Shown one piece after another: positions 20,483-54,537 of a DNA stretch of 64,000 bases; positions within the stretch are counted from its first letter, which is position 1, and every line of letters starts with the position of its first letter. The DNA comes from Nitrospirota bacterium. GTDB lineage: Bacteria > Nitrospirota > Thermodesulfovibrionia > Thermodesulfovibrionales > SM23-35. The stretch covers positions 79,500 to 143,499 of the forward strand of contig JBMOLW010000030.1 in the NCBI GenBank assembly GCA_049323875.1, in the 5' to 3' direction. The position numbers were made by a program, and so were the translations under genes. The notes under the pieces were generated by a model. That model ran no database searches. It was not told where the DNA came from and saw nothing but the letters and a program-made list of their open reading frames with translations.

Positions 20483-21327
20483 AATCACCGAAGAAAAAAG
20501 TACAGGTGTTCATCATATCTGATGCCACAGGATTAACGGCTGAAATGGTAATCAGTGCAGCGCTGGTACAGTTCAGGGAGATCGAGCCGGTCTTTAAGAA
20601 ATTCCCTTACATCAGAACAGGGGAACAGATAAGCGCCATCTTTTCGCAGGCGGAAGCAGCGCACGGCATCGTAATATATTCGCTCGTTTCCCAGGACCTC
20701 AGGACATGGGTCCGCAGGGAAAAGAGAAAGAGGAACGTGTTTGCAGTCGATATCCTCGGATCGCTTATCGACCAGATTGGAAGAATATGGAATCTTATCC
20801 CGGAATTCAGTCCCGGCCTGCTTAACAGGGTGAGTGAAGAATCGATCCGCCTTGCGGAATCCATTGATTTCACCCTGAGGCATGATGACGGTCTGGGTGC
20901 TGATACGATCGAACAGGCTGATCTGATCCTGTTCGGGGTCTCAAGGACGTCCAAGACGCCGACAAGCCTTTATCTTTCCTGCAATCAGAACCTTAAGGTT
21001 GCGAATATCCCGATCATAGAGAACGTTGACCCTCCGGAGAAGGTTTATTCCCTCGGCATGCAGAAAGTGGGATTTACCATTTCAGCCGAGAGGCTTGCGT
21101 TCATACGGGAGAGGAGGATGAAATATGCGGAAGCGAATGACTATCTTGATCTTTCACATATCCGGGAGGAGATAGAATACAGCCACCGCATATACAGAAA
21201 GGTCCCGGGTATCCAGATTATCGATGTGACGCACAGCTCCATCGAAGAGGTTGCGAATAAGATCATGGAGTGGAGACAGGAACCCGTTAAAGATGGAAAG
21301 GAGGAAATGTCCGATGCAACGAAATGA
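20461..21327 (+). CDS. ppsR: PEP synthase regulatory protein (DUF299 kinase/pyrophosphorylase), copy 1
   Basis: [13 protein letters not shown] at the N-terminus, the P-loop [14 protein letters not shown] and the C-terminal SIEEVANKI. Confidence 0.85.
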
Positions 21328-23704
21328 TTTTGTGTTATGGTTCAAAGACCTTGGCAAGGAGGATATCCCGCGTGTCGGCGGCAAGTGCGCAAATCTTGGC
21401 GAGCTTCTGGGCAAGGTCGGTGTTCCCGTGCCCGACGGGTTTGCCGTTTCGGCAGGCACGTACAAACAGTTCCTCGAAAGGACACAGACGCATAAAACAA
21501 TACAAAAACTCCTCTCCGGCCTCGTTTCCACAGACATGGATGCGCTGAACAGGATTTCCGGAAAAATACGGAAGCATATCGAGGGAATTCCCATGCCGAA
21601 CGATATGGAAAAGGCTTTCCTCGCTGCATACCGGGAGCTCTGCAAGCGGACAGGGAAGAAGAACGTTCCGGTTGCGGTGAGGTCCTCTGCAACTGCCGAG
21701 GACCTGCCTGGCGCGAGTTTCGCAGGACAGCAGGACACCTTCCTGAATGTAACGGAGAAGACCCTTGTCAGCAGTATCAGGAAATGCTGGAGCTCCCTCT
21801 TTACACCCCGTGCCATCGTGTACCGGAAAGAGAAGGGGTTTTCCCATGATGATGTGCTCATCAGCGTAGCGGTACAGGAGCTTGTCTTCTCTGCCGCCTC
21901 CGGGGTCATGTTTACGCTGGAACCGGTAAGCGGAGATACCGGAAGGATCGTGATCAATGCTTCATGGGGCCTCGGAGAGGCGGTTGTGAGCGGACAGGTG
22001 ACGCCGGACGAATATGTTGTTGAGAAAGAGTCGATGAAGATCGTGGAAAAACATGTAGTCAGGAAAGACAGGCAGATTGTGTCTGATGCGAAGGGCGGAA
22101 CGAACTGGGTGAAAGTTCAGGAGCCGATGCAGAAACAGCCGGTGCTTGACGATGCTTCAATCGTCCGTCTCGCTGAATATGGCATCCAGATAGAGAAGCA
22201 TTACGGGGTACCCCAGGACATTGAATGGGCGGTTGATGATTCGGGCAGGCTGTTCATTCTCCAGGCCCGCCCGGAAACGGTCCACGGCGCTGAAGGAGCG
22301 CGGACAATCACAGAAGGGAAGGAGCATATGGAAAGAGATATCCTGTTGAGAGGCATCGGGGTGAGCCCCGGTCAGGCGTCAGGCAAAGTGAAAACCATTC
22401 TGGATGTGAAGAAGATATCCGGGTTCCGCGAGGGAGAAATTCTTGTCACGGAGATGACCACTCCTGACTGGGTTCCTGCAATGAAGATCGCAGCAGCTAT
22501 CGTGACGAACCTGGGAGGAAAGACCTGCCATGCAGCCATTGTCAGCAGGGAGCTTGGAGTCCCCTGCATTGTCGGCACGGAGAACGCGACAAAAGTCCTG
22601 AAAGACGGCCAAGTGATTACGGTTGACGGGCAGAGGGGACTGATCTACAGGGGTTCGGTAGCAAAGAAGGGGGAGCCGTCCGCGCCTGTACAGGGAGTGG
22701 CAGATATGTCGGCACAGATTGTTACAGCAACTAAAGTTTACGTAAATATCTCAATCCCTGAGATAGCGGACAGGATAGCGAAGGAGACGAATGCGGACGG
22801 CGTAGGGCTTCTTCGCGCAGAGCACCTCATGCTCAGCATAGGCAAGCATCCGAGACTTCTGCTTGAAGAAGGAGGGGAAAAGGTCATGCTCGATACCTTT
22901 GCGAACGGTGTCGGCAGGGTTGCGGAAGCGTTTTTCCCGAAACCCGTTGTGTACCGGTTTCTCGATTTCAAGCCGGATGAATTTCTCGAACTCCCCGGAG
23001 GGGAGAAATATGAAAGGAAGAACGTGGGCCCGAATCCGATGATCGGATACCGCGGAGAATACCGGTATTCCAAAGAGGATGATATCTTCAGGCTCGAATT
23101 ACGAGCGATCCGGCAGGCCCGGGAAAAGATGGGGCTGCATAACATCTGGGTCATGGTACCTTTCGTACGGACACTGGACATATTCAGAAAGACGGTCTCG
23201 ATCATGCGCGAAGAGGGTCTGGACAACCGGAATGACCCGGGTTTCCAGCTCTGGATAATGGTCGAGGTCCCGAGTGCGGTATTCATGATCAGGGAGTTCT
23301 GCAGGGAAGGGATCGACGGGGTGAGTTTCGGGACCAATGACCTTACCATGCTCGTCCTCGGCGTTGACAGAAATGATACTTCGGTGCAGGAACTGTACGA
23401 CGAACGGAACCTCGGCGTCCTCCGTGCAATTGCCTATACCATGGCGATATGCAGAAAACAGGGCGTGACGACCTCCATCTGCGGACAGGCCCCGAGCGTG
23501 TACCCTGACTATCTCGAGTTCATGATACGGTGCGGAGCCACTTCGATATCTGTGAATCCGGATACGGTCATTTCCTCAAGAAGAAGCGTGGCTGTGGTTG
23601 AACAGAAAATACAGATGGAAAAGGCGCTCGGTATTGTGACGAAACCGAAGATAGCAAAAATTCCCCTTGAAGAGGTGTTCTTTTGGAGAGGGATGGAAGA
23701 ATAG
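21314..23704 (+). CDS. ppsA: Phosphoenolpyruvate synthase (pyruvate, water dikinase)
   Basis: VGGKCANLGEL, SSATAEDLPGASFAGQQDT, the phospho-His region GGKTCHAAIVSRELGVPCIVG and the C-terminal PEP-utilising TIM domain (GVSFGTNDL). ATG 21314 is preceded by AAGGAGGA and overlaps the ppsR end. Confidence 0.9.
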   Translation: MQRNDFVLWFKDLGKEDIPRVGGKCANLGELLGKVGVPVPDGFAVSAGTYKQFLERTQTHKTIQKLLSGLVSTDMDALNRISGKIRKHIEGIPMPNDMEKAFLAAYRELCKRTGKKNVPVAVRSSATAEDLPGASFAGQQDTFLNVTEKTLVSSIRKCWSSLFTPRAIVYRKEKGFSHDDVLISVAVQELVFSAASGVMFTLEPVSGDTGRIVINASWGLGEAVVSGQVTPDEYVVEKESMKIVEKHVVRKDRQIVSDAKGGTNWVKVQEPMQKQPVLDDASIVRLAEYGIQIEKHYGVPQDIEWAVDDSGRLFILQARPETVHGAEGARTITEGKEHMERDILLRGIGVSPGQASGKVKTILDVKKISGFREGEILVTEMTTPDWVPAMKIAAAIVTNLGGKTCHAAIVSRELGVPCIVGTENATKVLKDGQVITVDGQRGLIYRGSVAKKGEPSAPVQGVADMSAQIVTATKVYVNISIPEIADRIAKETNADGVGLLRAEHLMLSIGKHPRLLLEEGGEKVMLDTFANGVGRVAEAFFPKPVVYRFLDFKPDEFLELPGGEKYERKNVGPNPMIGYRGEYRYSKEDDIFRLELRAIRQAREKMGLHNIWVMVPFVRTLDIFRKTVSIMREEGLDNRNDPGFQLWIMVEVPSAVFMIREFCREGIDGVSFGTNDLTMLVLGVDRNDTSVQELYDERNLGVLRAIAYTMAICRKQGVTTSICGQAPSVYPDYLEFMIRCGATSISVNPDTVISSRRSVAVVEQKIQMEKALGIVTKPKIAKIPLEEVFFWRGMEE

Positions 23705-25698: not shown

Positions 25699-27324
25699 AT
25701 GAAAAATGCTGTAATGGTAAACAATGCTGAAGGTCTGTTTCCGGATACTTCTGATATCCCGGAACGGGTTCGCATGAACGGGCCGATAATGCAGCATGAA
25801 TACCTGATCAATGGTGAATTAAGGATATGGACCGGTGAAATGCAGGAAGTCAGGTCGCCGATACTCCTGAAGAGTCCGTCGGGCCTGATGAGCCCGCTGG
25901 TGGGTTCCTATCCTCTGCTCACGGAAAAAGAATCGATGGAAGCCCTTGTTTCCGCGATCTCTGCATATGATCAGGGAAGAGGACGCTGGCCCTCGATGTC
26001 TGTCCGCAACAGAATCGCATGTATTGAAGGCTTTCTGGAAGAGATGCTCTCAAAGAAGGAAGAGATACTGACGCTCTTCATGTGGGAGATCGGCAAATCT
26101 CTGGAAGGCGCATTGCAGGAATTCGACCGGACAACCGAATATATCCGGAACACTCTTGACGCGCTCAAAAGCATGGACCGTTCTTCTGCGGAGTGCGTGA
26201 GGGAGCAGGGAATCCTCGGGTATATCCGGAGAGCGCCGCTGGGAGTTGTGCTCTGCATGGGGCCGTATAATTATCCTCTGAATGAGACCCTGTCTATCCT
26301 TATCCCGGCACTGGTAATGGGAAACACTGCGGTCATTAAACCTCCGAAACTTGGCGTCCTCCTTCACTCTCCGCTGCTCAGGGCATTCCGGAGTTCTTTC
26401 CCCCCGGGTGTTGTGAATATCGTGTATGGGGACGGGAAGCAGATCATTCCTCCACTCTTGCGAACCGGCAAGGTGGATGTGCTGGCTTTTATCGGATCGA
26501 GCAGGGTCGCTGAGAAACTGAAGGGCATGCACCCGAAACCACACAGGCTCCGTTCCATATTGGGACTGGAGGCAAAAAACCCGGGGATCATCCTCCCGGA
26601 GGCAGACATGGAGACCGCGGTACAGGAATGCATTCAGGGGAGTCTGGCATTCAACGGACAACGTTGCACAGCCCTGAAAATACTCTTTGTGCACTCCAGG
26701 GTTGTGCGAACGTTTCTTGAGGGTTTTGCAGAAGAGATGGAACGCTTGCAGTGCGGCATGCCGTGGGAAGGGGGTGTCGTAATCACTCCTCTTGCGGAAC
26801 CCGCAAGGGTGTCATTCCTGAAGGAACTTGTGCAGGATGCTGAACAACACGGAGCTCATGTCATGAACAGGTCAGGCGGAGTTGTCCTGGGAACCCTATT
26901 CTGTCCGACCCTGCTTTATCCTGTGAATGAACATATGAGAATCTACCGTGAGGAGCAGTTCGGGCCTGTAGTGCCGGTCGTTCCTTTTGACGATATTGAA
27001 ACGCCGATACGCTATATTATTGAATCGAGCTACGGCCAGCAGGCGAGTATTTTCGGTAAGGATCATGAGACAATGCGGAAACTGACTGATATCCTGGTCA
27101 CTCAGGTATGCCGGGTGAATATCAACTCTCTGTGTCAGAGAGGCCCTGATGTGTTTCCTTTTGCCGGAAGGAAGGATTCGGGAGAGGGAACGCTTTCCGT
27201 GTCTGACGCGCTACAGGTGTTTTCGATCCGCACAATGGTTACTACCCGGGATTTTAAGGACAATGAGGAAGTGCTCGCAGCTATTGTAAGGGGTAGCGCC
27301 TCAGAAATAGATCCCGCCAACTGA
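25699..27324 (+). CDS. Aldehyde dehydrogenase, non-phosphorylating glyceraldehyde-3-phosphate dehydrogenase (GapN)-like
   Basis: ALDH fold with GLEAKNPGII (catalytic Glu region), FNGQRCTALK (catalytic Cys in the GQRCTA context typical of GapN) and EEQFGPV. Confidence 0.75.
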   Translation: MKNAVMVNNAEGLFPDTSDIPERVRMNGPIMQHEYLINGELRIWTGEMQEVRSPILLKSPSGLMSPLVGSYPLLTEKESMEALVSAISAYDQGRGRWPSMSVRNRIACIEGFLEEMLSKKEEILTLFMWEIGKSLEGALQEFDRTTEYIRNTLDALKSMDRSSAECVREQGILGYIRRAPLGVVLCMGPYNYPLNETLSILIPALVMGNTAVIKPPKLGVLLHSPLLRAFRSSFPPGVVNIVYGDGKQIIPPLLRTGKVDVLAFIGSSRVAEKLKGMHPKPHRLRSILGLEAKNPGIILPEADMETAVQECIQGSLAFNGQRCTALKILFVHSRVVRTFLEGFAEEMERLQCGMPWEGGVVITPLAEPARVSFLKELVQDAEQHGAHVMNRSGGVVLGTLFCPTLLYPVNEHMRIYREEQFGPVVPVVPFDDIETPIRYIIESSYGQQASIFGKDHETMRKLTDILVTQVCRVNINSLCQRGPDVFPFAGRKDSGEGTLSVSDALQVFSIRTMVTTRDFKDNEEVLAAIVRGSASEIDPAN

Positions 27325-46063: not shown

Positions 46064-47362
<1,299 letters not shown>

Positions 47363-47463: not shown

Positions 47464-49122
47464 ATGAAACTCCATGAACTCGCAGGCAAACCAGCGCCGA
47501 GATCGCTGCTCGCCAATATCCCGAGACTCATTGCGGCCTATTATGCGTACAAGCCGGATGCCGATGAAACAACCCATCAGGTGTCGTTCGGCACGTCCGG
47601 ACACCGGGGTTCTTCCCTGAGACACAGCTTCAATGAAGCACATATCCTCGCAATCAGTCAGGCCATATGCGAATACAGAAAAACGAACCGCATCAGGGGG
47701 CCCCTGTTCCTGGGAATGGACACCCATGCATTGTCAGAACCTGCGCGGGTGAGCGCACTCGAGGTCTTTGCAGCGAACAAGATACCGGTTCTGGTGCAGC
47801 AGGGGTTCCGGTATACCCCAACCCCGGTAATCTCACATGCTATCCTTACGTATAACAAAAAGATCCGCGGGATCAGAGGCCGCTCCGATGGTGTGGTCAT
47901 TACTCCTTCCCATAATCCACCCGAGGATGGAGGGTTCAAGTACAACCCCCCCCACGGCGGTCCTGCCGATGACGGCACCACCAGGAGAATCGAGGAAAAG
48001 GCAAACGAGCTGCTCGCCAGGGGACTCAAAGGCGTCAGGAGGATGCCGTACGAAAGGGCAGTAAAGAGCGGATCCATTTCCGAATATGATTATATATCTC
48101 CTTATGTAGACGACCTTGTCAATATCATAGACATGGAGTGTATTTCATCCGCAGGGTTGAAGATCGGTGTGGACCCGCTGGGAGGGGCTGCGATCGATTT
48201 TTGGGAGCCTATTGCAGACCGCTACGGAATTGCACTTGAGGTGGTCAATACGGTTATCGATCCTGCATTCTCCTTTATGACTTTGGACAAGGACGGAAAG
48301 ATCAGGATGGACTGCTCGTCACCCTATGCAATGGAGCGTCTCATACGGTTAAAAGATAGATACGATATTGCCTTTGGAAACGATACGGATGTGGACCGCC
48401 ACGGGATCGTAACGAGAGAGGCAGGTCTCATGAACCCGAACCATTATCTGTCAGCAGCACTATGGTTTCTCCTCCAGAACAGGACGGATTGGAGAAAAGA
48501 CGCAATGGTAGGGAAGACTCTTGTTTCGACCTCCATGATCGACAGAGTTGCCGGAGCGCTCGGGAGGAGAGTCTCGGAGGTGCCTGTTGGATTCAAATGG
48601 TTTGTTGAAGGACTTATCGATGGCTCATACGCGTTTGGGGGAGAAGAGAGCGCAGGAGCTTCTTTTGTGAGGAAGAACGGAACGGTATGGACAACGGACA
48701 AGGACGGCATCATCATGGACCTCCTTGCCTGTGAAATCACTGCCGGAACGGGGAAGGACCCCGCTTTCCTCTATCAAGAGCTTGAGGAAAGGTTCGGCAG
48801 ACCGTCATATATTCGTATTGATGCGCCGGCAACGTCTGAACAGAAGGCTGTTCTGAAAAAACTCTCTCCTGAAATGGTTACTTCACATGAACTTGCAGGG
48901 GAGCCCATAACTGCAAAATTGACCCGTGCTCCGGGCAATAATGCTGAAATCGGGGGGCTGAAGGTTATTACCCAAAACGGATGGTTTGCTGCGCGTCCTT
49001 CAGGCACGGAGGATATTTACAAAATTTATGCAGAGAGTTTCCTTGGCAGGGAACATCTCGAGAAGATACAGGATGAGGCTCTAGCAATTGTCAGCGACGC
49101 ATTCGTCCGGGCAGGCGTCTGA
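47464..49122 (+). CDS. pgm: Phosphoglucomutase (alpha-D-glucose-phosphate-specific, E. coli Pgm type)
   Basis: FGTSGHRG, the phosphoserine loop [36 protein letters not shown] and a length of 552 aa. Confidence 0.9.
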
Positions 49123-49131
49123 GAGAACTCT

Positions 49132-49575
49132 ATGAAAATTTTGACAACTCCGCGGATGGAACGATGCATAGGATGTCATTCCTGTTCTCTTGCCTGCGCA
49201 CGGCTGGTGCATAAGAGGCTTTCGTGGGACACCGCAGGGATACGGATCCGCACATCGGGCGGACTCTCGACAGGGTTTGAGGCGAAGAGCTGTCTTGCCT
49301 GCAACCCAGCTCCCTGCGCCGAGGCCTGCCCGACCGGAGCCTATTCCCAGAGAAAAGGGGGAGGGGTTCTCGTCAGAAAAAAACTCTGCATCAGATGTGG
49401 TGAATGCGCAAGGGCATGTCCGGTCGACGCTATCTATCTCGATCCTTCAGGAGAGCCGTTTGTCTGCATTCATTGCGGCCGCTGTGTGCAGTTCTGCCCC
49501 CATGACTGTCTCGAGATGAGGGAAGTGAAAGAAGAGTACAGCGTTCAGGGATCTGAAGGGGAGGAGCAGGGATGA
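49132..49575 (+). CDS. Polyferredoxin-like protein with four [4Fe-4S]-type Cys motifs (AOR electron-transfer subunit-like)
   Basis: CIGCHSCSLAC, CLACNPAPCAEACP, CIRCGECARACP and CIHCGRCVQFCP (16 Cys). It starts 9 nt after pgm and has an ATGA overlap with the AOR gene. Confidence 0.8.
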   Translation: MKILTTPRMERCIGCHSCSLACARLVHKRLSWDTAGIRIRTSGGLSTGFEAKSCLACNPAPCAEACPTGAYSQRKGGGVLVRKKLCIRCGECARACPVDAIYLDPSGEPFVCIHCGRCVQFCPHDCLEMREVKEEYSVQGSEGEEQG

Positions 49576-51338
49576 TCCGCGACCATTTCAGGGTCCTTGC
49601 ACTTGATCTTATCACAGGACGGGGCAATATTATTGAGGTGGAAGGACGGAACGAAACAGCAGGGGGGAGCGGCCTTGCCGCGGTCCTTTTTGGCAGGTTC
49701 GGGCACTCTGGAAAACCATGGAATGATCCGGAACAGCCTCTCATCTTCACTATCGGCCCGCTTACCGGATATTTCCCCCTCATGAGCAAGACAGTGTGTG
49801 CATTCAAGTCACCTTTCCATGGTCAGTATGCTGAAAGTCACGGGGGAGGCAGGTCCGCTCTTGCCCTCAGGTTTGCTGACCTTGATGCGCTCGTGATAAC
49901 CGGCAAGGCTGCGAAACCTGTTTGCGTAGCTGTCGGTTCACGCCATCTCGCCATCCGGGAAGTCCACTATCTCTGGGGCATGGATGTCTTTGCAGCGGGC
50001 AAATATCTCAGGAATATGTACCGGGGGTCGGGGCACCGGAGCATTCTCCGCATCGGCCCTGCAGGTGAAAAGGGTTCACCAATGGCCTGTATCAACGCAG
50101 ATACCTACCGTCATTTCGGCAGGCTTGGCGGAGGAGCAGTAATGGGTGCGAAAAACCTTAAGGCCATAGTCATCCAGGGAGATGCATCATTCATGCTTCC
50201 CGGGAATACGGAATATCCGAAACTTTTCCAGGAGGTGCACAGACGGCTTACCGATACGGACATGATGAGCAAATACCATAACCTCGGAACACCGGCGAAC
50301 GTAATGCTCCTGAACAATCTGAAGGCATTGCCGGTAAGAAATCTCCGGCAGACAACAGATCCTCGTATTGAGGGAATATCAGGCGAGAAGTTTGCAGAAG
50401 TCGCACTGCTCAGGAACAATGCATGCTCGGGATGTCCTGTCGGGTGCATCCATATAGGCTTTGTCAGGGAAAGGTTCCATGAGGAGAACAGATACCTGTA
50501 CCGTCAGGTGGCGTACGATCATGAGCCGATTTTTGCGACAGGTTCCATGCTCGGGGTGTTTGACTGTTTCGCAGTGCTCGGCATCATGGACATAGTGGAA
50601 AGGATGGGACTCGATGTGATGTCAGCAGGGGTAGCTCTTGCCTGGGCCACAGAAGCCTTTGAGAAAGGGCTTATCTCTGAAGCAGAGACGCTGATCCCCC
50701 TGAAATTCGGTGATGCGGAGGGTTACCGGAGGGCTATACAGCACCTTGCAAACGGAACCAATGAATTCTATCAGCTTCTTGGAAAGGGGACCATGGTTGC
50801 AGCGGAGCGGTATAGCGGGAAAGACTTTGCCTGTGTCCTTGGGCAGGAGATGGCAGGGTATGCTACCGGCGAGGTATTTTTCGCTTCGCAGGCCCTTGGG
50901 TTCAGACATTCACATCTGGATTCAGCGGGATATTCCTTTGACCAGAAGACCGGAGAGAAGAATGCCGGAAAAGCGGTTGATTTTCTCGTACAGGATGAAC
51001 AGGGGAGGGTTTTTCTCACCTCAATGGTAGCCTGTCTGTTCGCCCGCAGCGTATACAACGATGAACTGCTCGGCAAATGCCTGGAATCCCTCGGCTACGG
51101 AGAACTTGCAGCGAAGATGCCGGAGGTGTCCCGTTTTATCCAGAGGCTCCGCTGGAAAACGAGGATTTTGACTGGTTTCGACCCAGGGTCCGTTTCAATC
51201 CCGAAGAGGTTTACCGAAGTCGTGAACTGGAAGGGTCCGGTTGATGCAGAATACCTGAATGCTGTCAGGGAAGAATATGCAGTGAGAATTCTCGATATGG
51301 GTAGCGATGGAGAGACTGGGCGGGAAGGAACATCCTGA
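49572..51338 (+). CDS. Aldehyde:ferredoxin oxidoreductase (AOR) family tungsto/molybdopterin enzyme
   Basis: The AOR N-terminal domain (GGSGLAAVLF, GPLTG, FKSPFHG, ESHGGG, GPAGEK), the [4Fe-4S] motif CSGCPVGC, and the C-terminal pterin-binding domains (EMAGYATGE). Length 588 aa. Confidence 0.9.
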   Translation: MIRDHFRVLALDLITGRGNIIEVEGRNETAGGSGLAAVLFGRFGHSGKPWNDPEQPLIFTIGPLTGYFPLMSKTVCAFKSPFHGQYAESHGGGRSALALRFADLDALVITGKAAKPVCVAVGSRHLAIREVHYLWGMDVFAAGKYLRNMYRGSGHRSILRIGPAGEKGSPMACINADTYRHFGRLGGGAVMGAKNLKAIVIQGDASFMLPGNTEYPKLFQEVHRRLTDTDMMSKYHNLGTPANVMLLNNLKALPVRNLRQTTDPRIEGISGEKFAEVALLRNNACSGCPVGCIHIGFVRERFHEENRYLYRQVAYDHEPIFATGSMLGVFDCFAVLGIMDIVERMGLDVMSAGVALAWATEAFEKGLISEAETLIPLKFGDAEGYRRAIQHLANGTNEFYQLLGKGTMVAAERYSGKDFACVLGQEMAGYATGEVFFASQALGFRHSHLDSAGYSFDQKTGEKNAGKAVDFLVQDEQGRVFLTSMVACLFARSVYNDELLGKCLESLGYGELAAKMPEVSRFIQRLRWKTRILTGFDPGSVSIPKRFTEVVNWKGPVDAEYLNAVREEYAVRILDMGSDGETGREGTS

Positions 51339-51402
51339 TCCATGAGGAGAGCCCAGGGGCAGATGCTGGGGGAGATATCCTGTGCGAGAGGAGGACGATG
51401 CT

Positions 51403-53070
51403 ATGCTCGATAAGATTGATCCGTCAGAAACCCGTGCGTGGAAAAAACTTCTCAGTCATTTCAGGAGGATGAGAAAAAAGCATATGCGGGATATGTTTCA
51501 GAAAGACCCGGCAAGGTTTTCCCGGTTCTCTCTGACATTCGAGGATATTACAGTAGACTTTTCCAAGAACATCATATCAGGCAGAACCATGAAGCTGCTT
51601 CTGGAACTCGCAGAGGAATGCCGGCTCAGGGAAGCGATCGGATGCATGTTCAACGGGGACAAAATCAATGAGACTGAAGGCCGTGCCGTGCTCCATGTTG
51701 CTCTCAGAAACCGTGCGAATGTCCCTGTCTTTGTTGATGGAAGGGACGTAATGCCTGAGGTAAATGCTGTCCTCGACCAGATGAAGAGGTTTTCTGAAGC
51801 CGTCATCAACGGTGAATGGAGAGGCTATACAGGCAAGCCTGTTTCCGATATTGTGAATATCGGTATCGGCGGATCGGACCTCGGTCCTCACCTGGTGACT
51901 GAGGCGCTGCAACCATACAGGAAAGCTCATCTTCGCACGCATTTTGTCTCGAATGTTGACGGAACCCATATCACCGAGACCTTGAAGGGACTGTCACCCG
52001 AAACCACGCTTTTCCTGGTCGTTTCCAAGACCTTCACCACCCAGGAGACGATGAGAAATGCCCGGACTGCGCGGCAGTGGTTTCTTGATGCAGCCCGGAA
52101 CGAGGGATTCATCAGAAATCATTTCGTGGCGGTTTCCACGAATACAGACGAAGTCCTGAAATTCGGTGTGGATACTTCCCATATGTTCAGGTTCTGGGAC
52201 TGGGTGGGCGGCAGGTATTCTCTCTGGTCAGCTGTCGGCCTCTCGATCGCCTGTTCGCTGGGGTTTGAGAATTTCCTCGCGCTCCTTGAAGGGGCTCATG
52301 CGGTAGACGTTCACTTCCGGGCCACCCCGTTCGAAAAGAACATCCCGGTAATCCTCGCCCTGATCGGGATCTGGTACGGAAGTTTTTTCGGAGCCGAGAC
52401 CGAAGCGGTCCTTCCCTATGATCAGTATATGCACAAATTCCCCGCATATTTGCAGCAGTGCAACATGGAGAGCAACGGAAAGTCCGCAGACAGGACAGGG
52501 AATAAGGTTACCTATCAGACCGGTCCCATAATCTGGGGGCAGCCGGGGACAAACGGCCAGCACGCCTTCTACCAGCTTATCCATCAGGGCACGAAGACAA
52601 TCCCCTGTGATTTTCTTGCACCTGCGCTGAGTCATAACCCGGTCGGAGATCATCACGATATACTGGTATCAAATTTCTTTGCGCAGACAGAGGCGATGAT
52701 GAAAGGAAAAACAAGGGAAGAGGTGAGTGCCGAACTCCGGGCATCGGGCATGAGCGATGAACAAGTGCGGTTTCTTGCTCCGTTCAAAATATTTCACGGC
52801 AACGTCCCGACCAACTCGATACTGTTCCACAAACTTACTCCAAGGACACTGGGGAGTCTCATCGCGCTTTACGAACACAAGATCTTTGTGCAGGGCATTC
52901 TCTGGAATATATACAGTTTCGACCAGTGGGGAGTTGAATTGGGCAAGCAGCTTGCTAACAGAATCCTGCCTGAACTGGGCGACCGGAATCCCGTCTCCGG
53001 GCATGATTCATCGACGAACGGACTGATAAACAGGTATAAGGAACTGCGCTCACAGGATACGGCTTCATAG
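51403..53070 (+). CDS. pgi: Glucose-6-phosphate isomerase
   Basis: [37 protein letters not shown] and ESNGK signatures. ATG 51403 is preceded by GAGGAGGA; the ORF is open from GTG 51382. Confidence 0.9.
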
Positions 53071-53106: not shown

Positions 53107-54537
53107 ATGAAATTACCTGCAAACAAGACAAAGATCGTATGCACCATAGGGCCCGCATCCCGTTCACCTGATATTATGGAAAAGATGCTGCTGGCCGGAA
53201 TGAATGTGGCGCGGCTCAATTTCTCGCATGGTGACCTGAGCGAACATGGCAGGGTGATACAGGATCTCCGTGAAACTGCCCGAGCGCTCGGCAGGCGGGT
53301 TACGATCATGGCAGACCTTCCGGGACCGAAAATCAGAATCGGACATCTTTCACACGAGCCGGTATATGTGAAGGCCGGTGATAATATGGTTTTAACAACC
53401 GACACCATTACCGGAGATGCGAGCAGGGTCTCTGTTAGTTTCGACAGACTTCCCGCCGCAGTAAAACCCGGAGATACCCTGTTCCTCAACGACGGCATGA
53501 TCAGCCTTGAGGTGGTAAACGTCAGCGGGAGGGAAGTTTACTGCCGGGTTCTCGTGGGGGGAGAACTCAGGTCAAGGAAGGGACTCAACCTGCCGGGGAT
53601 CGACCTGGGGATCAGTGCCTTTACCAGATACGACCATGATTGCCTGAAATTCGCCCTGGAGCAAGGAATAGATGCCGTCAGTCAGTCATTTGTGGAAGAC
53701 GCCGCTGACATACAGGCTGTAAGAGAAGCCGCTGCTTCTCTGGGACATCAGCCGTTTATCATAGCGAAGATCGAAAGGGCAAGGGCGCTGGATCATATCG
53801 ATGAAGTGATTGATGCGGCAGACGGGATCATGATTGCGAGGGGCGATCTCGGAGTAGAACTTCCCATAGAACGGATCGCGGTGGTCCAGAAACAGCTTAT
53901 GCGCAAAGCGAACATGCGGGCCAAACCAGTGGTAACTGCCACCCATATGCTCGAATCGATGATCTCCAATCGCCGCCCGACCCGCGCGGAGTCAACTGAT
54001 GTGGCAAACGCCATCCTTGACGGGACTGACTGTGTCATGCTTTCCGGCGAATCGGCCATGGGTAACTTTCCGGTTGAGTCGGTCGAGATGCTTGCGAGGA
54101 TTGCCGCAGCGATTGAACCGTACCGCGTCAGGATGAGCGCAAAAGAGATGTTCCAGGGGCTTGTCCTTACGGGGGATGTGCCCCCGGCAAGGCTTGTTGA
54201 CCTGAGTGTGGAAACAGTCCTTGAATACGCGAAGCCTGCAGCGGTATTTGTTCCGACCCGCAGTGGGTTTACCGCAAGGAGTATCGGGCGTTTCAGGCTT
54301 CCGGTGTGGATTGTTGCAATCAGTTCACAGGATGCCACCTGTCAGAGGCTGCAATTCTCTTCAGGAGTATATCCTGTGCTGGAAAAAGAGCACCCTGAGA
54401 ACTGGAAACCCTATGTGAGTGATTGGTTGACCAGACATGAAATCCCCGGAAAGTTTATTGTGCTTACTGAGGGGCCGTCGTCAAAACATCCCGATGCAAA
54501 CCACCGCATGGAGATCCTCGATATCAGGACTTCCTGA
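53107..54537 (+). CDS. pyk: Pyruvate kinase
   Basis: KTKIVCTIGPAS, GMNVARLNFSHG, MIARGDLGVELP and ATHMLESM. The stop overlaps the alaS stop region (convergent 14-nt overlap). Confidence 0.9.
   Translation: MKLPANKTKIVCTIGPASRSPDIMEKMLLAGMNVARLNFSHGDLSEHGRVIQDLRETARALGRRVTIMADLPGPKIRIGHLSHEPVYVKAGDNMVLTTDTITGDASRVSVSFDRLPAAVKPGDTLFLNDGMISLEVVNVSGREVYCRVLVGGELRSRKGLNLPGIDLGISAFTRYDHDCLKFALEQGIDAVSQSFVEDAADIQAVREAAASLGHQPFIIAKIERARALDHIDEVIDAADGIMIARGDLGVELPIERIAVVQKQLMRKANMRAKPVVTATHMLESMISNRRPTRAESTDVANAILDGTDCVMLSGESAMGNFPVESVEMLARIAAAIEPYRVRMSAKEMFQGLVLTGDVPPARLVDLSVETVLEYAKPAAVFVPTRSGFTARSIGRFRLPVWIVAISSQDATCQRLQFSSGVYPVLEKEHPENWKPYVSDWLTRHEIPGKFIVLTEGPSSKHPDANHRMEILDIRTS

Follow-up and report, generated by a model that had tools for sequence, protein, structure and literature searches.

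Within the aldehyde ferredoxin oxidoreductase (AOR) family, two kinds of enzyme have been tied to the ferredoxin-linked oxidation of glyceraldehyde-3-phosphate (GAP). The archaeal one is GAPOR, which in Pyrococcus furiosus oxidizes GAP directly to 3-phosphoglycerate with ferredoxin. In bacteria, one GAP:ferredoxin oxidoreductase has been characterized, GOR of Caldicellulosiruptor bescii (formerly XOR; GOR-S/GOR-L = Athe_0820/0821), a WorL/WorS heterodimer assigned to the class II WORs, clade 20, in which all four second-shell residues are conserved and which is unrelated to archaeal GAPOR (PMC13328260; PMC12096430). Here we analyzed a 64,000-nucleotide stretch of a Nitrospirota genome from the order Thermodesulfovibrionales (the window; positions 79500-143499 of contig C30; genome size 2.79 Mb, completeness 99.6%) in which a 147-aa ferredoxin with four [4Fe-4S] motifs (49132..49575, + strand) and a 588-aa AOR-family pterin protein (P0002; 49572..51338, + strand) are encoded together in a string of glycolytic genes. 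We consider it probable, at roughly 65%, that the two form a GOR-lineage, class II, tungsten-type heterodimer, with the ferredoxin as WorS/GOR-S-like small subunit and P0002 as WorL/GOR-L-like large subunit, which would convert GAP to 3-phosphoglycerate with ferredoxin in parallel to GAPDH and PGK. The first-pass annotation of the window had proposed a ferredoxin-linked AOR-family enzyme acting on GAP in a non-phosphorylating step, and phylogeny, signature residues, the architecture of the subunits and gene linkage that recurs in relatives all back this core idea. The enzyme type is already known: the "bacterial GAPOR-like bypass" envisaged there is in effect GOR, and since C. bescii GOR has already been characterized, the bypass idea is not new and the pair is no new kind of system.

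We compared P0002, which carries the AFOR_N and AFOR_C domains, with solved AOR-family chains and with NCBIfam equivalog models. The solved chains of P. furiosus AOR (PfAOR), FOR, WOR5/ASOR, Aromatoleum AOR and Haloferax WOR83 matched it at 105-164 bits and ~30% identity, with PfAOR, FOR and Aromatoleum AOR at 130-164 bits (PfAOR 164 bits; ~30% identity), and BamB scored 56 bits. The archaeal GAPOR model NF040818 (GAPOR_Arch) gave 25.7 bits vs. a cut-off of 1300, in a partial match to residues 51-121 only, and the WorS gene overlapping the large-subunit gene likewise rules out the monomeric archaeal enzyme. A bacterial copy of archaeal GAPOR would share the proposed reaction and would also be an AOR-family protein, but model score and architecture (588 aa with an overlapping WorS gene vs. 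a ~650-aa monomer) already refute it. GAPOR and GOR moreover belong to unrelated clades and GAPOR has no conserved Tyr/His region (PMC12096430), which P0002 does have, and we give the idea next to no credence. The part of the GAPOR comparison that stands is the ferredoxin-linked AOR-family route from GAP, for which the right comparator is the bacterial C. bescii GOR and not archaeal GAPOR.

The C. bescii sequence was reached by sampling 401 genomes of the Wukongibacter phylum with a Wukongibacter homologue as query, a sample in which six complete genomes (2.4-2.9 Mb) encoded homologues of 589 aa. We take genome G203 to be C. bescii DSM 6725, given its three giant GH48 open reading frames (ORFs) in one cluster and its single AFOR_N gene, and its AFOR_N locus presumably is the XOR/GOR locus of Scott et al. 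2015, which it matches. There, the AFOR_N gene has a 136-aa four-cluster ferredoxin gene upstream and MoeB-like, TupA, TupB, TupC and MoeA genes downstream; being the sole AFOR_N gene of the genome, it is therefore treated as GOR-L of C. bescii. P0002 aligned with this protein over its full length at 42.4% identity and 481 bits, and the small subunit of the window aligned with the product of the gene directly upstream of GOR-L at 44.8% identity over 134 aa, with the same 17-Cys layout. C. bescii GOR-L itself reached only 228 bits with PfAOR. The small subunit, which has Fer4 family matches, had been described as a 16-Cys polyferredoxin; this is correct for the cysteines within its four cluster motifs, while the protein has 17 in total.

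Phylogenetic placement was assessed in IQ-TREE (LG+C20 PMSF, 96 rows, 588 columns, SH-aLRT support) with 14 generic AOR representatives as outgroup, of which P0177 is AOR sensu stricto (492 bits to PfAOR). P0002 and C. bescii GOR-L fell in one superclade that split from the 14 generic AORs with an SH-aLRT of 100. Within it, the clade of the window protein, which also holds the representatives P0122 and P0124, was nested in a 38-row group (SH-aLRT 98) together with Bacillota and three Caldicellulosiruptor GOR-L sequences. A FastTree LG tree made the same clade sister to all other superclade members, unlike the site-heterogeneous IQ-TREE run. Placement is firm at the level of the superclade only, clade 20 being the published clade of C. 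bescii GOR. The pair might alternatively be a broad-specificity aldehyde:ferredoxin oxidoreductase that serves aldehyde detoxification or the ferredoxin-driven reduction of acids (such as acetate to acetaldehyde) and sits in its operon incidentally. Most characterized AOR-family enzymes are indeed broad-range, and the database names of the relatives say only "aldehyde ferredoxin oxidoreductase", but P0002 grouped with none of AOR sensu stricto, FOR, WOR5 and Aromatoleum AOR, all at 105-164 bits vs. the 481 bits to GOR-L.

An exhaustive search of 50%-identity representatives returned ~16 full-length clusters at 316-730 bits and 33-56% identity, with the rest of the AOR family at ~200 bits. Close relatives (70-86% identity) were numerous in metagenomes, the named ones belonging to Nitrospirota, Deltaproteobacteria/Syntrophobacterales and Planctomycetota, and the sub-lineage of the window is 66-86% identical across Nitrospirota, Desulfobacterota and Planctomycetota. 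A scan of species genomes with a profile built from these clusters found at least 80 named loci; among the loci listed were Thermotogota, Synergistota, Caldisericota, Atribacterota, Nitrospirota (including Thermodesulfovibrio), Desulfobacterota, Chloroflexota, Spirochaetota, Methanothrix and other Methanotrichaceae, Bathyarchaeia and Thermoproteota. No relevant literature turned up when GOR or GAPOR was searched for in Nitrospirota or Thermodesulfovibrio. A four-cluster WorS-like ORF lay directly upstream of the large subunit at 86 of 94 superclade loci, which makes the whole group class II (WorL + WorS) as defined by Putumbaka et al. 2026 (PMC13328260). Large subunits of ~700 aa that appeared to be fused at some loci were rejected as ORF-calling artefacts, caused by out-of-frame read-through of the WorS gene.

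P0002 keeps the columns that are conserved family-wide, with cluster ligands C285, C288, C292 and C488 and second-shell residues T240, E318 and H448, and its Y430 aligns with Tyr427 of PfAOR in a pairwise alignment. A further 44 positions are conserved across the superclade, C. bescii included, yet different in generic AORs, and P0002 retains every one of them (44/44). Many adjoin catalytic residues in the sequence, such as K234/H236 before T240 and Y315/D316 before E318, and others are found after Y430 (T432/G433) and around H448 (H446/S447/D450). The signature set also includes the basic positions R94, R156, R160, H294, R299, R479 and R492, from which we infer a possible phosphate site.

Gene linkage in relatives was assessed by clustering the neighbors of 95 loci without prior labels and then naming recurrent clusters by Pfam. 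Of the 17 genome loci with a pair of the window's type, 11 had glycolysis or glycogen genes within 7 genes, compared to 5.5% of random 15-kb windows of the window's genome that hold any gene of the same panel. With S-L denoting WorS-WorL, these loci showed at least six arrangements: eno-pgm-S-L-pgi-pyk, pyk-S-L, pyk-dPGM-S-L, PFK..dPGM-S-L, ackA-pyk-eno-gap-S-L..glgX and LDH-dPGM-S-L-glgX. The glycolytic linkage is conserved and enriched in relatives, and neither of two outcomes named as refuting in the first-pass annotation, clustering with broad AOR or FOR and a lack of such linkage, was observed. The commonest neighbors encode the enzymes leading from 3-phosphoglycerate to pyruvate, namely dPGM, enolase and pyruvate kinase. 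In the rest of the superclade, glycolysis- or glycogen-type neighbors were found at 18 of 78 loci, with a fructose-1,6-bisphosphate (FBP) aldolase/phosphatase in Methanothrix and Methanocellales (described below), PFK in one Bacillota, one Desulfobacteria and one Nitrospirota genome and pyk in Desulfurella. A broad-specificity enzyme would fit the relatives in one Nitrospirota family that lie in islands with acetate kinase and lactate dehydrogenase; however, linkage that recurs in several arrangements, far over background, together with the superclade split, makes that explanation of the window's pair quite unlikely.

Other neighborhoods were seen as well. At loci L129, L130 and L151 (Nitrospirota family f25), the pair is beside TctABC and CitMHS carboxylate transporters and not glycolysis genes, and both a hybrid-cluster (Prismane) protein and a sigma-54 activator of the PrpR type are encoded nearby. 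In Methanothrix, other Methanotrichaceae and Methanocellales, the WorS-WorL pair is two genes from an archaeal FBP aldolase/phosphatase (FBPase_3), and genes for a sugar-phosphate nucleotidyltransferase and the large subunit of a form III RuBisCO are in the vicinity (L035:6583-9178 and matching parts of L036, L040-L042, L044, L049, L059 and L077). These methanogen loci hint at a link between RuBisCO-derived 3-phosphoglycerate, GAP and hexose synthesis or breakdown.

Across 401 sampled Nitrospirota genomes, 19 carried the window's type (66-75% identity) and ~31 carried another GOR-like type (39-44% identity), and none of the 401 carried both. In the window's own family, some genera have one type and some the other. 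The two lineages are ~42% identical to each other, as exemplified by G679:C58:50835-52472 vs. G660:C6:19462-21222. The absence of co-occurrence, along with the presence of both types within one family, fits the replacement of one equivalent enzyme by another, and it looks as if one GOR-like lineage was replaced by a laterally acquired one. We tentatively suggest, as a possibility that we hold to be less likely than its opposite, that the window's sub-lineage represents a form of GOR in its own right, spread laterally and 66-86% identical in at least three phyla, that displaced the older type in several lineages of anaerobes and became wired to glycogen breakdown and lower glycolysis. If so, these sulfate reducers and fermenters would by default burn stored glycogen through a glycolysis that gives up ATP to reduce ferredoxin, and their enzyme might depart from C. 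bescii GOR in metal, ferredoxin partner, regulation or sugar-aldehyde substrate.

Several points weigh against reading the pair as a GAP-oxidizing GOR. The window's clade is set apart by a long stem of 0.89 changes per site, and its nearest relationship, to Caldicellulosiruptor and the Wukongibacter group, has weak support (SH-aLRT 81); the tie of the sub-lineage to GOR is firm at the level of the superclade. Within the clade, 22 positions are fixed differently; most of these changes are conservative, and a few are not (L to R26, Y to C118, FE to D263-P264 and H to A431). Inside the superclade, the substrate is known for C. bescii GOR alone, and AOR-family members at 42% identity can differ in substrate, as do AOR and FOR of P. 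furiosus. Glycolysis linkage is missing at 6 of the 17 genome loci, on three further metagenome contigs and in one Deltaproteobacteria genome, and C. bescii GOR itself has no glycolytic neighbor. The related genomes surveyed are also not independent, and because of this kinship the linkage counts are descriptive, although gene orders as varied as these speak against inherited synteny as a simple explanation.

The same long stem and 22 clade-specific substitutions, some of them non-conservative, would be expected if the sub-lineage had changed its substrate after diverging within the GOR lineage, to glyceraldehyde, glycolaldehyde, erythrose-4-phosphate or another phospho-aldehyde, and the loci where the neighbors are tricarboxylate/citrate transporters and a PrpR-type activator instead of glycolysis genes point the same way. 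Yet none of the 44 superclade signature positions has been lost, whether beside the catalytic Thr, Glu, Tyr and His or elsewhere, the commonest neighbors consume 3-phosphoglycerate, and the complete lack of co-occurrence with the other GOR-like lineage (0/401) suggests that the two are equivalent. We therefore regard a shifted substrate as unlikely, and favor GAP as the probable substrate of the window's pair.

The pair is part of one tight, same-strand string, eno-pgm-ferredoxin-AOR-pgi-pyk, as determined from the ORF listing and Pfam/NCBIfam scans. The string's first glycolytic gene is eno (46076..47362, +), encoding a 428-aa enolase (TIGR01060, 690 bits, cut-off 300; Enolase_N and Enolase_C), followed by pgm (47464..49122, +), encoding a 552-aa protein with PGM_PMM domains I-IV. 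The gene name pgm given earlier stands, with the meaning of phosphoglucomutase by TIGR01132 (900 bits, cut-off 778), not of phosphoglycerate mutase; TIGR01132 makes it the alpha-D-glucose-1,6-bisphosphate-dependent enzyme, with a role in converting glycogen-derived glucose-1-phosphate to glucose-6-phosphate. Downstream of the pair are pgi (51403..53070, +), encoding glucose-6-phosphate isomerase (NF001211, 850 bits, cut-off 492; Pfam PGI), and the last gene, pyk (53107..54537, +), encoding a 476-aa pyruvate kinase (TIGR01064, 490 bits, cut-off 306; PK and PK_C), the 3' end of which converges on alaS. The gene structure reported in the first-pass annotation was reproduced throughout: the ferredoxin ORF starts at 49132, leaving 9 nt after the end of pgm at 49122; its stop codon (TGA, 49573-49575) and the AOR start codon (ATG, 49572-49574) overlap as ATGA; and eno and pyk flank the set on the same strand. 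The 64-nt gap between the end of the AOR gene at 51338 and pgi, without a terminator-like site, holds with the likely pgi start at ATG 51403, which is preceded by a ribosome-binding-site-like gagaggagga at 51386-51395, while GTG 51382 lies in the same frame and could also serve as the start. A consensus scan found no terminator-like sites in the three intergenic gaps and a regional count no higher than in shuffles, and G+C was even across the region. Beside the pair, where the neighbors are pgm and pgi, we found no gene for a FAD/NAD subunit like Aromatoleum AorC, no WorN-like gene and no gene for a membrane subunit.

In the proposed mechanism, WorL would hold one pterin-metal site and one [4Fe-4S] cluster and WorS four [4Fe-4S] clusters. 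The enzyme would oxidize GAP directly to 3-phosphoglycerate and pass the electrons via the five clusters to a low-potential ferredoxin (GAP + H2O + 2 oxidized ferredoxin -> 3-phosphoglycerate + 2 reduced ferredoxin), such that the 1,3-bisphosphoglycerate step and its ATP would be bypassed. The pair is predicted to be co-transcribed with genes for glycogen entry (Pgm, Pgi) and lower glycolysis (Eno, Pyk), and an operon of this kind would carry glycogen-derived glucose-1-phosphate to pyruvate while making reduced ferredoxin.

The opposite direction was also considered, in which the enzyme would be a ferredoxin-dependent 3-phosphoglycerate reductase that spares ATP in gluconeogenesis. The Methanothrix/Methanocellales pair beside the gluconeogenic FBP aldolase/phosphatase and form III RuBisCO would suit such a role. 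However, the potentials of acid/aldehyde couples are, as is textbook knowledge, well under that of ferredoxin, and in the window the neighboring pyruvate kinase and phosphoglucomutase serve catabolism, with a PEP synthase gene located separately at 21251-23704. AOR-family enzymes can reduce acids when given very low-potential donors (PMC9295118), but archaeal GAPOR and C. bescii GOR are both described as glycolytic (PMC13328260). We judge a reductive role very improbable, and oxidation of GAP remains the direction that we favor for the window's pair.

The host genome indicates how such a route would fit with conventional glycolysis. The AOR gene of the operon is the sole AFOR_N gene in the genome. 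As noted in the first-pass annotation, gap, pgk, tpi, fba and pfk are all absent from the window; they are located elsewhere in the genome, on contigs C39, C47, C42 and C37 and at 423-520 kb of C30. On C39, gap adjoins pgk, and C30 has two further Gp_dh_C matches; the genome also has tpi, an fba-like gene, two pfk genes and two full-length glycogen phosphorylases. Since gap and pgk are present, the GOR-type enzyme would run parallel to the NAD-dependent GAPDH/PGK route, as in C. bescii, and of the glycolytic bypass put forward earlier the non-phosphorylating step is supported, as a parallel route and not as a replacement. A second gap gene is ~4 kb from a glgX-like debranching enzyme (C30:519444-526321, outside the window) and one of the full-length glycogen phosphorylases (C30:173973-176111) is ~30 kb past the window end; the glycogen genes are therefore scattered on contig C30. 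The gene panel gave no match in the window's genome to a dPGM-type (His_Phos_1) mutase or to acetate kinase, both of which are neighbors of the pair in relatives.

Searches by tblastn with the neighbors of C. bescii GOR detected two moeA genes and a tupABC-like locus (C1:87133-90306, 87-90 kb) with two adjacent TupA-like binding-protein genes. This locus is a possible source of tungstate for the single AOR-family enzyme, which speaks to supply and not to metal content. The aldehyde dehydrogenase (ALDH) encoded at 25699-27324 of the window had been called GapN-like, and as such would have offered a second non-phosphorylating route past GAP. It can be assigned to the ALDH family only: archaeal GAPN scored 192 bits vs. 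a cut-off of 780 and lactaldehyde dehydrogenase 209 vs. 650, and it matches many ALDH equivalogs far under their cut-offs, the best scores being those of lactaldehyde and succinic-semialdehyde dehydrogenase. With no curated cut-off reached, the second route is unsupported.

GOR-like pairs are found in Thermotogota, Synergistota, Atribacterota, Nitrospirota, Desulfobacterota, Bacillota, Methanothrix, Bathyarchaeia and others. Should the assignment be right, the oxidation of GAP in a non-phosphorylating, ferredoxin-linked reaction would be no oddity of hyperthermophilic archaea and Caldicellulosiruptor but a possibility open to anaerobic bacteria and archaea widely. For the Nitrospirota lineage of the window, the operon would tie the enzyme to glycogen use, which leads to a prediction on ATP yield vs. 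low-potential reducing power, and the pair is a candidate mesophile-type GOR for biochemical work.

Set against the known systems, the solved enzymes PfAOR (1AOR), FOR (1B25), WOR5/ASOR (6X1O) and Aromatoleum AOR (8C0Z) share with P0002 the AFOR_N and AFOR_C fold, the cluster cysteines and the catalytic Glu and His, and the latter two also share a four-cluster WorS-type subunit; however, they fall outside the superclade of the window protein, and AorC, the FAD/NAD subunit of the Aromatoleum enzyme, has no counterpart beside the pair. Archaeal GAPOR (P. furiosus, Methanococcus maripaludis; class I WOR, clade 23) has in common with it the proposed non-phosphorylating, ferredoxin-linked conversion of GAP to 3-phosphoglycerate in glycolysis, but belongs to an unrelated AOR-family clade and is a monomer of ~650 aa without WorS, compared to 588 aa plus WorS in the window. 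C. bescii GOR stands outside the long-stem sub-lineage of the window protein, which is found in Nitrospirota, Desulfobacterota and Planctomycetota. The C. bescii genes adjoin tupABC and pterin-cofactor genes whereas the window pair is inside a glycolysis/glycogen operon, and the C. bescii host is a cellulolytic Firmicute growing at 78 °C, compared to a mesophile-like host with ~51% G+C from a biofilm metagenome. That metagenome is the sole DNA sequencing run listed as containing the stretch and possibly its source sample, and no RNA run is listed for it. The two nevertheless have the same overlapping or adjacent genes, with a four-[4Fe-4S] small subunit of ~136-147 aa followed by a large subunit of ~586-589 aa, and both fall in the superclade and retain its 44 signature positions together with the four second-shell residues. 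In both, the enzyme is the sole AOR-family gene product of a genome that also encodes GAPDH and PGK as well as tungstate-transporter-like genes.

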